From the NCBI RefSeq assembly GCF_024502345.1, contig NZ_JALDNN010000001.1: a stretch of 64,000 nucleotides of DNA, one strand, 5' to 3'. This document shows, piece after piece, positions 53,006 to 53,884 of the stretch. The first letter of the stretch is position 1; each line of letters begins with the position of its first letter. A program made the translations under genes and the position numbers. The notes beneath the pieces were generated by a model. The model was not told where the DNA came from, made no database searches, and worked only from the letters and a program-made list of their open reading frames with translations. Source of the DNA: Escherichia coli. GTDB lineage: Bacteria; Pseudomonadota; Gammaproteobacteria; Enterobacterales; Enterobacteriaceae.

Positions 53006-53884
53006 TTACTGACTCGCCGCAGCCAACTCTTCTTCTGACAGCCCGGTAAATCGCAGAACGTCCTCAAGAGGGACTCCGGCATCCAGCATGGTTTTGGCAA
53101 TAGCACGTATACCTTTCTGAAACCCCTCCTGCCGCAATCTTTCCGCAATAGTCATTAAACTCTCCTTGTGTTTCGGTGAACGTTCGGCAACGCCGTCGAT
53201 AAAATCGTTAAAACGTACCGCATCGCCGGTTTGCAAGATGTAATTAAACAGCCCTTTGATTTGTCTGTCATTAGCGTATCCACTACTTAATAAGCAGGCC
53301 ATTTGCTCTACCAGCCCCATCAGGTCGCGTTGACGAATATGTTTTTGAATTAACTCCAGCAGCGCCATACGTCGGTGCTGCATGATTTCATCATCAGGCA
53401 TGACGGTGACATCAATCAGCGGAAATGCGGAGGCATAAAGCTGCCTTGCCAGTTTGGGATTGGCGAAACAATCCAGCCAACACAGCGAATAGGGATAGGG
53501 GCTTTCAATACCGTGGTAAAACAACAATGGCACCACCATCGGCAACGTTTTGTATCCAGCATCAAGGTGATTTTGCATTGCGGCAATAGCGTAACGCATC
53601 ATGCGAAATGCGATCAGTTTGTTTGAAGTGCTTTGATGTTCAATCAGACAATAGATGTATCCTGGTCCTTGTTCTGTTTTCACCGACCACAGCACATCGG
53701 AATAGCTTTCACGCAGATCGTCATCAATAAAGCTGTTCGACTCCAGCTTGAGGGTTTTCATATCACAGAGCGCGTGAATGGGTGCCGGTAAATGAAACGC
53801 AAGAAAATCGCGTGCCGTCTCCGGTTGGCGTAAAAATAGTTTGAACAGCGCATCGTGTGGGGTGGAACTCTGCTTTTTGCTCAT
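53006..53884 (-). CDS. rpnA: Rpn-family recombination-promoting nuclease / transposase-like protein (YhgA, RpnA)
   Basis: 292-aa ORF ([27 protein letters not shown]...), recalled as YhgA. Confidence 0.85.

Follow-up and report, generated by a model that had tools for sequence, protein, structure and literature searches.

Is the rpnA (yhgA) gene that lies beside the feo operon of Escherichia coli the remnant of a mobile element, a recombination factor of its host or something else? A sequence-only reading of the 64,000-nucleotide stretch of E. coli DNA that we analysed (hereafter, the window) had placed it in the core genome as a domesticated mobile-element-related gene, in a region that also carries a recent insertion sequence. 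We consider it very probable that rpnA is a two-in-one toxin–antitoxin module, in which the RpnA_L nuclease and an internally translated antitoxin, RpnA_S, share a dimerisation segment that was imported from elsewhere.

The gene is E. coli chromosomal rpnA, correctly named, ordinary and already known. Its interval (Table 1) holds one intact open reading frame of 292 codons plus a stop, and an identical 292-aa protein is on record as RefSeq WP_256632703.1, RpnA of E. coli. Membership in the Rpn/YhgA-like family follows from matches above the curated cut-offs of three profiles: PF04754 (Transposase_31, YhgA-like), which covers RpnA residues 8–209 (E 2.5e-91; 305 bits against a cut-off of 21); TIGR01784 (173.5 bits against 52.1); and the NCBIfam equivalog NF007361, 'recombination-promoting nuclease RpnA', which matches end to end (676 bits against a curated cut-off of 583). 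The first of these is the Rpn/transposase_31 hit on which the sequence-only reading had staked its assignment of yhgA/rpnA next to feo, and that assignment stands, down to the exact reading frame. A local Pfam-A scan of RpnA gave PF04754 only, and a precomputed Pfam match to PF27070 (HTH_Rpn_C) is on record for the exact window protein.

The neighbourhood gives the same identification. Both K-12 MG1655 and the closest complete genome have the order gntT-nfuA-gntX-bioH-rpnA-feoC-feoB-feoA found in the window, and the position between feoC and bioH makes the gene orthologous to rpnA. Upstream, feoC lies 202 nt away on the same strand; bioH is convergent, at a distance of 26 nt. Strain AHM8C212RI matches the surrounding 9.2 kb collinearly, at 99.1% identity and with no indels, and tblastn found no second rpnA copy within the window. 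Compared with K-12 RpnA, the window protein is 94.9% identical, with 15 of 292 amino acids and 44 nt differing. The feoABC terminator separates rpnA from the feo operon: its hairpin has a predicted energy of −29.3 kcal/mol (z −4.5), and none of 200 shuffled sequences was equally stable. Because the 5' region of rpnA sits downstream of this terminator, we infer that the gene should need a promoter of its own. A strict consensus scan of positions 52900–54150 found no sigma-70 site, neither upstream of rpnA nor internal to it.

Table 1. Coordinates of rpnA, its parts and related features. Positions are those of the window, except for the last row, which refers to four separate loci.
Feature	Position	Strand	Description and basis
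rpnA_L	53006..53884	minus	Full-length RpnA (toxin, PD-(D/E)XK endonuclease), 292 aa; ORF and profiles
Codon D11	53852..53854	minus	Needed for K-12 RpnA activity
PD-(D/E)XK core codons	53633..53698	minus	D63 (53696-53698), E82 (53639-53641), Q84 (53633-53635)
Codon D165	53390..53392	minus	In conserved PDDEI motif, non-core part of Transposase_31 domain
rpnA_S	53006..53155	minus	In-frame nested 49-aa antitoxin gene, Met244 to shared stop; 7TH0 match and model
Shine-Dalgarno of rpnA_S	53162..53167	minus	AAGGAG, codons K240-E241; spacer of 6 nt to the Met244 ATG (53153..53155)
Hypervariable patch	53054..53122	minus	Codons 255-277; covers helix 2 of RpnA_S and the latter half of its helix 1, the dimer interface; also part of RpnA_L
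rpnA 5' region	53885..54029	minus	Presumed promoter region; rpnA_L RBS GAAGGA at 53890-53895, from sequence
feoABC intrinsic terminator	54030..54065	minus	GCCCGG/CCGGGC hairpin and U run; RNA fold
IS903-type (IS5 family) element	30470..31526		1057 bp; 18-bp terminal inverted repeats GGCTTTGTTGAATAAATC; 9-bp target duplication
Decayed stand-alone antitoxin spacer	L005 873..1091; L006 665..883; L007 and L008 640..858

Residues known to matter for the nuclease are all in place. D11, D63, E82, Q84, R94 and D165 occur in window RpnA at their K-12 positions, as does the MPDDEIM stretch around D165. In K-12 RpnA, the substitutions D11A, D63A, E82A and Q84K abolish stimulation of recombination, toxicity and SOS induction (Kingston 2017, PMC5350276); D165A makes the protein hyperactive, and the purified enzyme acts as an endonuclease that depends on Mg2+, is stimulated by Ca2+ and shows little sequence specificity (PMC5350276). 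With 94.9% identity to that purified enzyme, the window protein would be expected to act as a Mg2+-dependent DNA endonuclease as well. Strong purifying selection acts on codons 1–243, with dN/dS of 0.07–0.13 at dS of 0.05–0.07 in comparisons with K-12 and O157.

A second gene, on which the sequence-only reading was silent, is nested in the 3' end of the first. Zhong et al. concluded that a transposase role is very unlikely for Rpn proteins, which they regard as toxin–antitoxin modules whose antitoxin is made from an internal start (2023, PMC10400941). In K-12, RpnA_S begins at Met244: the triple mutant K240R+E241D+M244L abolishes it, and the bases that were mutated include the AAGGAG site (PMC10400941). 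The AAGGAG–Met244 stretch of the window is identical to this mutation-validated K-12 site and is the same in 8 of 8 aligned E. coli alleles, and so at the sequence level the gene contains an internal start and ribosome-binding site for a separate C-terminal small protein. That 49-aa product matches the crystal structure of 'RpnA-S' (PDB 7TH0) end to end (E 4e-15), and public assemblies also annotate exactly this product as a separate gene. An AlphaFold model built from an alignment of 11 alleles (pLDDT 87.9) places helices at residues 3–25, 30–37 and 41–48 and, when superposed on 7TH0, gives TM 0.85/0.91 and an rmsd of 0.8 Å. Together with the structure match and PF27070, the model points to the three-helix RpnS fold with its long dimerisation helix, a fold that the window RpnA_S is thus predicted to have in common with its K-12 counterpart.

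The behaviour of these two products is described for K-12. RpnA_L alone is toxic and cleaves DNA strongly, whereas RpnA_S combines with RpnA_L into an L2S2 complex in which cleavage and SOS induction are blocked; the start site of the short transcript was derived from dRNA-seq, and RpnA_L is undetectable under laboratory conditions (PMC10400941). By analogy with the K-12 experiments, nuclease activity, toxicity, antitoxin action and an internal promoter would also be attributes of window rpnA. Translation from the first ATG (53884) would then give RpnA_L, a Mg2+-dependent and Ca2+-stimulated PD-(D/E)XK endonuclease of little sequence specificity that would damage DNA, induce the SOS response and, when overproduced, raise the level of RecA-independent recombination. 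Starting instead at the internal ATG of Met244 (53155), served by AAGGAG in codons 240–241 and reportedly by an internal promoter, translation would give the 49-aa, three-helix RpnA_S, whose long first helix would form a dimer with its identical counterpart in RpnA_L, so that the resulting L2S2 complex could not cleave. The block is lifted in vitro at alkaline pH, and its removal would set the nuclease free.

The proposed purpose of such a module is phage defence, a suggestion that would be carried over from the plasmid paralogue RpnP2, the sole member of the family with demonstrated protection (against T-even phages); none is reported for chromosomal RpnA (PMC10400941). A PADLOC v2.0.0 scan of RpnA_L and RpnA_S returned no match, a result to which we give little weight because its 2023 library predates or omits Rpn. 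The neighbours of rpnA (feo, bioH, gntX and nfuA) are housekeeping genes, not a defence island.

Where window RpnA departs from K-12 RpnA, it does so mostly in the antitoxin. In or next to codons 255–277 lie 12 of the 15 amino acid differences and 30 of the 44 nucleotide differences, and this hypervariable patch, whose helix limits were taken from the RpnA_S model, has a dS of 1.0–1.26 as against 0.05–0.07 in codons 1–243, which is ~20-fold higher, with dN/dS of 0.39–0.49. Synonymous divergence this high marks the patch as an old, divergent allele imported by recombination and not the product of recent point mutation. Helix 1 shows within-species hypervariability and variation in 4-aa units, for which the published insertion point is H261 (PMC10400941). 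A protein homologue search with the 49-aa RpnA_S supplied nine short ORFs, which we used as alleles; RpnA_S alleles of 48, 49, 50, 53 and 54 aa occur, differing by KGIR and TNAL units.

Aligned, these alleles resolve into three interchangeable tail modules: the 4-aa units of helix 1, helix 2 and helix 3. The helix-1 units read EGEQ-SKAL-HIAK in K-12, EGFQ-KGIR-AIAK in the window and EGFQ-KGIR-TNAL-NIAK in strain 98205, so that K-12 and the window have equal numbers of units with differing content, and the 98205 type has one more (TNAL). Helix 2 is either IMLESGVPLADIM, as in K-12, or a 13-residue stretch of the window type, and helix 3 is either a 12-residue K-12 type, which the window also has, or SLTVEDLAEINHQ, with which the E2348/69- and 98205-type alleles end. 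The E2348/69-type (WP_000039064.1, 293 aa) and 98205-type (WP_000039100.1, 297 aa) proteins have the FQKGIR...LEDVLRFT segment in common with the window. Over that segment the E2348/69 allele is 95.6% identical to the window in DNA, and codons 244–280 of the two show no amino acid difference. The window tail thus consists of the first two modules of the E2348/69 type and a third module of the K-12 type, and residues 255–277 are a divergent import, with helices 1 and 2 of the one kind joined to helix 3 of the other. Toxin and antitoxin changed together, presumably with a private pairing specificity as the outcome; because the antitoxin is the C-terminal domain of the toxin itself, the two necessarily co-evolve.

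A possible source of such mosaics lies just downstream in other strains. In E2348/69- and 98205-type strains the spacer between rpnA and bioH measures 219 nt, compared with 26 nt in the window, and carries a decayed, stand-alone second antitoxin-like ORF of the K-12 type, which is served by a separate AAGGA site and broken by a TAA stop at the position of a GAA codon in K-12 rpnA; the window has the K-12-type ending, the short spacer and no such relic. To judge from the aligned alleles, a crossover at the shared CG(A/C)TTTACC (RFT) would yield the window allele, either within a relic-bearing chromosome or with a K-12-type allele. Zhong et al. describe, in general terms, the loss or fusion of downstream rpnSs copies (PMC10400941), and the window tail may accordingly be read as an instance of that published phenomenon. 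A scan of the genome-collection contigs for the start of a stand-alone downstream antitoxin (MTDAEREYLI, degenerate) gave no match.

We also put forward, tentatively and as something we hold to be rather less than an even chance, a broader version of this idea: that the window tail belongs to a natural series of recombinants between the resident antitoxin segment and a downstream stand-alone rpnA_Ss, with crossovers at differing points creating mutually exclusive pairings, such that the window allele would neither be neutralised by K-12 and E2348/69 partners nor neutralise them. The proposed crossover points are near ALxIAK (in the retrieved short ORF P0022) and at RFT (in the window), and rpnA_Ss survives solely as the stop-codon-bearing relic of E2348/69- and 98205-type strains. 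If this proved true, rpnA would be a chromosomal example of cassette shuffling that generates antitoxin diversity, a kind of fusion that Zhong et al. describe only generally (PMC10400941). The recombined antitoxin cassette and the fossil second copies could in any case be used as a ready collection of natural variants in which to study the encoding and diversification of Rpn toxin–antitoxin specificity.

Across the species, the locus is nearly universal and the window allele is uncommon, yet already sequenced and annotated. Of 5426 complete E. coli genomes, 5424 carry rpnA at its usual place, and 763 of these 5424 have no alignment over 80% of the 1201-nt query. A 96-nt query covering the patch is matched at 100% identity in 14 of the 5426 genomes and at 99% in a further 27 among the matches listed, mostly O145:H28, which brings those with at least 99% to about 41 of 5426 among the matches listed. 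Coverage of at least 80% of this query is reached in 896 genomes, which we take as FQKGIR-type alleles in the broad sense, and K-12-type alleles align with it over 63 nt only, at 79–81%. We had considered identity bands as a proxy for allele class and dropped them because of this partial alignment, using full-coverage counts in their place. For the last 195 nt of rpnA, 99% identity is reached in just two genomes.

Near-universal occupancy bears out the placement of rpnA in the core genome only in part, as the nuclease portion has been deleted or interrupted in some lineages that keep the small ORF. In ATCC 25922, rpnA lacks the 5' part, including the catalytic core, and the small ORF is intact (L004 901..1494). 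In E. whittamii Sa2BVA5, an IS605-type element with a 376-aa TnpB-like ORF splits rpnA near codon 216 (L107 3821..5997); the tail is of the K-12 type and the 49-aa RpnA_S ORF is intact. Such losses and interruptions in several lineages show that the nuclease part is dispensable. E. whittamii is also the sole true rpnA orthologue outside E. coli to emerge from a scan of the genome-collection contigs for the YIYCxIEHQ motif, which yielded 115 loci (L014–L128), nearly all of them paralogues with 32–66% identity that have neither feo nor bioH beside them. Genomes of Photorhabdus, Xenorhabdus and Pectobacterium carry many Rpn paralogues apiece, with six loci each in P. namnaonensis and P. akhurstii, a pattern that fits the published patchy, multi-copy distribution of Rpn.

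How do other accounts of the gene compare? The view that rpnA goes back to the transposase of an old insertion sequence, as a domesticated gene or a relic, draws on names, since the Pfam family is called 'putative transposase' and a related NCBIfam model 'ISNCY family transposase', and on the patchiness of a family that has many copies in some genomes, Photorhabdus among them. We think it most improbable, and the sequence-only description of a mobile-element-related gene, which goes back to the Pfam name, is outdated: no terminal inverted repeats were found flanking rpnA, the window contains a single copy of the gene, whose position is shared by 5424 of 5426 genomes, where an insertion sequence would show terminal repeats with a target duplication and vary in position or copy number, and its catalytic core is PD-(D/E)XK, not that of a DDE transposase. 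No autonomous PD-(D/E)XK transposase is known, and comparative analysis of the family found neither defined ends nor target duplications (PMC10400941). A flanking 15-nt direct repeat (13 of 15 nt) that we had entertained as an insertion scar proved to be at chance level, with 2 observed and 0.7 ± 0.9 in shuffled sequences. Hardly more credible is a decaying, non-functional remnant in the window strain. The undetectability of K-12 RpnA_L in laboratory conditions (PMC10400941) and the truncated and IS-disrupted genes of ATCC 25922 and E. whittamii would agree with it, but the window ORF is of full length, every tested catalytic residue is intact, the nuclease domain has a dN/dS of 0.07–0.13, and the internal start and its ribosome-binding site are preserved.

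A more serious competitor, which we nevertheless judge unlikely, holds that RpnA is mainly a recombination factor of the host, whose cuts or nicks feed RecA-independent template-switch recombination and so aid the uptake of foreign DNA, and whose C-terminal tail is a DNA-recognition or targeting domain and no antitoxin. Stimulation of RecA-independent recombination was rightly cited in the sequence-only reading; it is reported for overexpressed Rpn family members (Kingston 2017, PMC5350276): overexpressed RpnA raised such recombination in conjugal crosses, catalytic mutants had no effect, and the variable tails were suggested to set DNA preference (PMC5350276). The fixed chromosomal site in nearly all E. 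coli also agrees with a host function. Against this, the phenotypes needed overexpression, RpnA_S was unknowingly co-expressed in the constructs, and cells produce the tail as a protein in its own right, which inhibits cleavage (PMC10400941); the nuclease domain is, moreover, the part that some lineages have deleted or interrupted. The toxin–antitoxin reading is favoured by the profiles, the 94.9% identity to K-12, the conserved residues, the purifying selection on codons 1–243, Met244 with AAGGAG, the match to 7TH0 in sequence and in predicted fold, the PF27070 match, the published RpnA_L and RpnA_S experiments and the mosaic C-terminus. We count against it the negative results of the strict sigma-70 and PADLOC scans, the restriction of phage protection to RpnP2, the undetectable K-12 RpnA_L and the loss or interruption of the nuclease part in several lineages. 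Annotations should treat rpnA as the gene of a nuclease toxin, with an antitoxin gene nested inside it, and not as a transposase relic; the pipelines still give only one product for it.

Among described systems, K-12 RpnA (YhgA, b3411) with its RpnA_S (7TH0) is the closest, as it has the same locus, neighbours, length of 292 aa, mutation-defined residues, internal ribosome-binding site and Met244. The plasmid-borne RpnP2_LS and the RpnC and RpnE genes with downstream RpnS_s copies (Zhong et al. 2023) belong to the same family and have the same gene-within-gene layout and 4-aa repeat variation in helix 1; their stand-alone downstream antitoxin copies, and the loss or fusion of these (Zhong et al. 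2023), parallel the series of rpnA alleles, the window itself having no separate downstream copy. As in type II toxin–antitoxin systems, a protein antitoxin would bind a protein toxin directly, but here the antitoxin is the independently translated C-terminal domain of the toxin and not a separate upstream gene. The catalytic fold is common to restriction endonucleases and to TnsA of Tn7, both PD-(D/E)XK; unlike these systems, rpnA has neither a methylase partner nor a TnsB-like one.

The recent insertion noted in the region is real. The element is of the IS903 type and is bounded by a perfect 9-bp target duplication, ATTGCCAAC, at 30461–30469 and 31527–31535; the terminal repeat of IS5 is not present. 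None of the 5426 complete E. coli genomes has an IS903-type element at this site, so that the insertion is indeed recent. It lies 21.5 kb from rpnA, and nothing was found that links the two. Between glgP and glpD lies a four-gene cluster (28859..33546) that encodes a PstS-family protein and three hypothetical proteins, and the element splits the first of the three hypothetical genes. No Pfam or NCBIfam profile matches the ORFs of this cluster at 32171..32938 and 32941..33546, and one member of the cluster is annotated as 'YbbD family' in some genomes; K-12 is not known to have this cluster. Elsewhere in the window, a 392-aa ORF on the minus strand (9840..11018) combines an Hcp/TssD domain (type VI secretion tube protein) at its N-terminus with a long C-terminal extension, and the window has no type VI cluster near it; the small RNA RyhB is encoded at 11890..11954 on the plus strand (Rfam RF00057, 83 bits).
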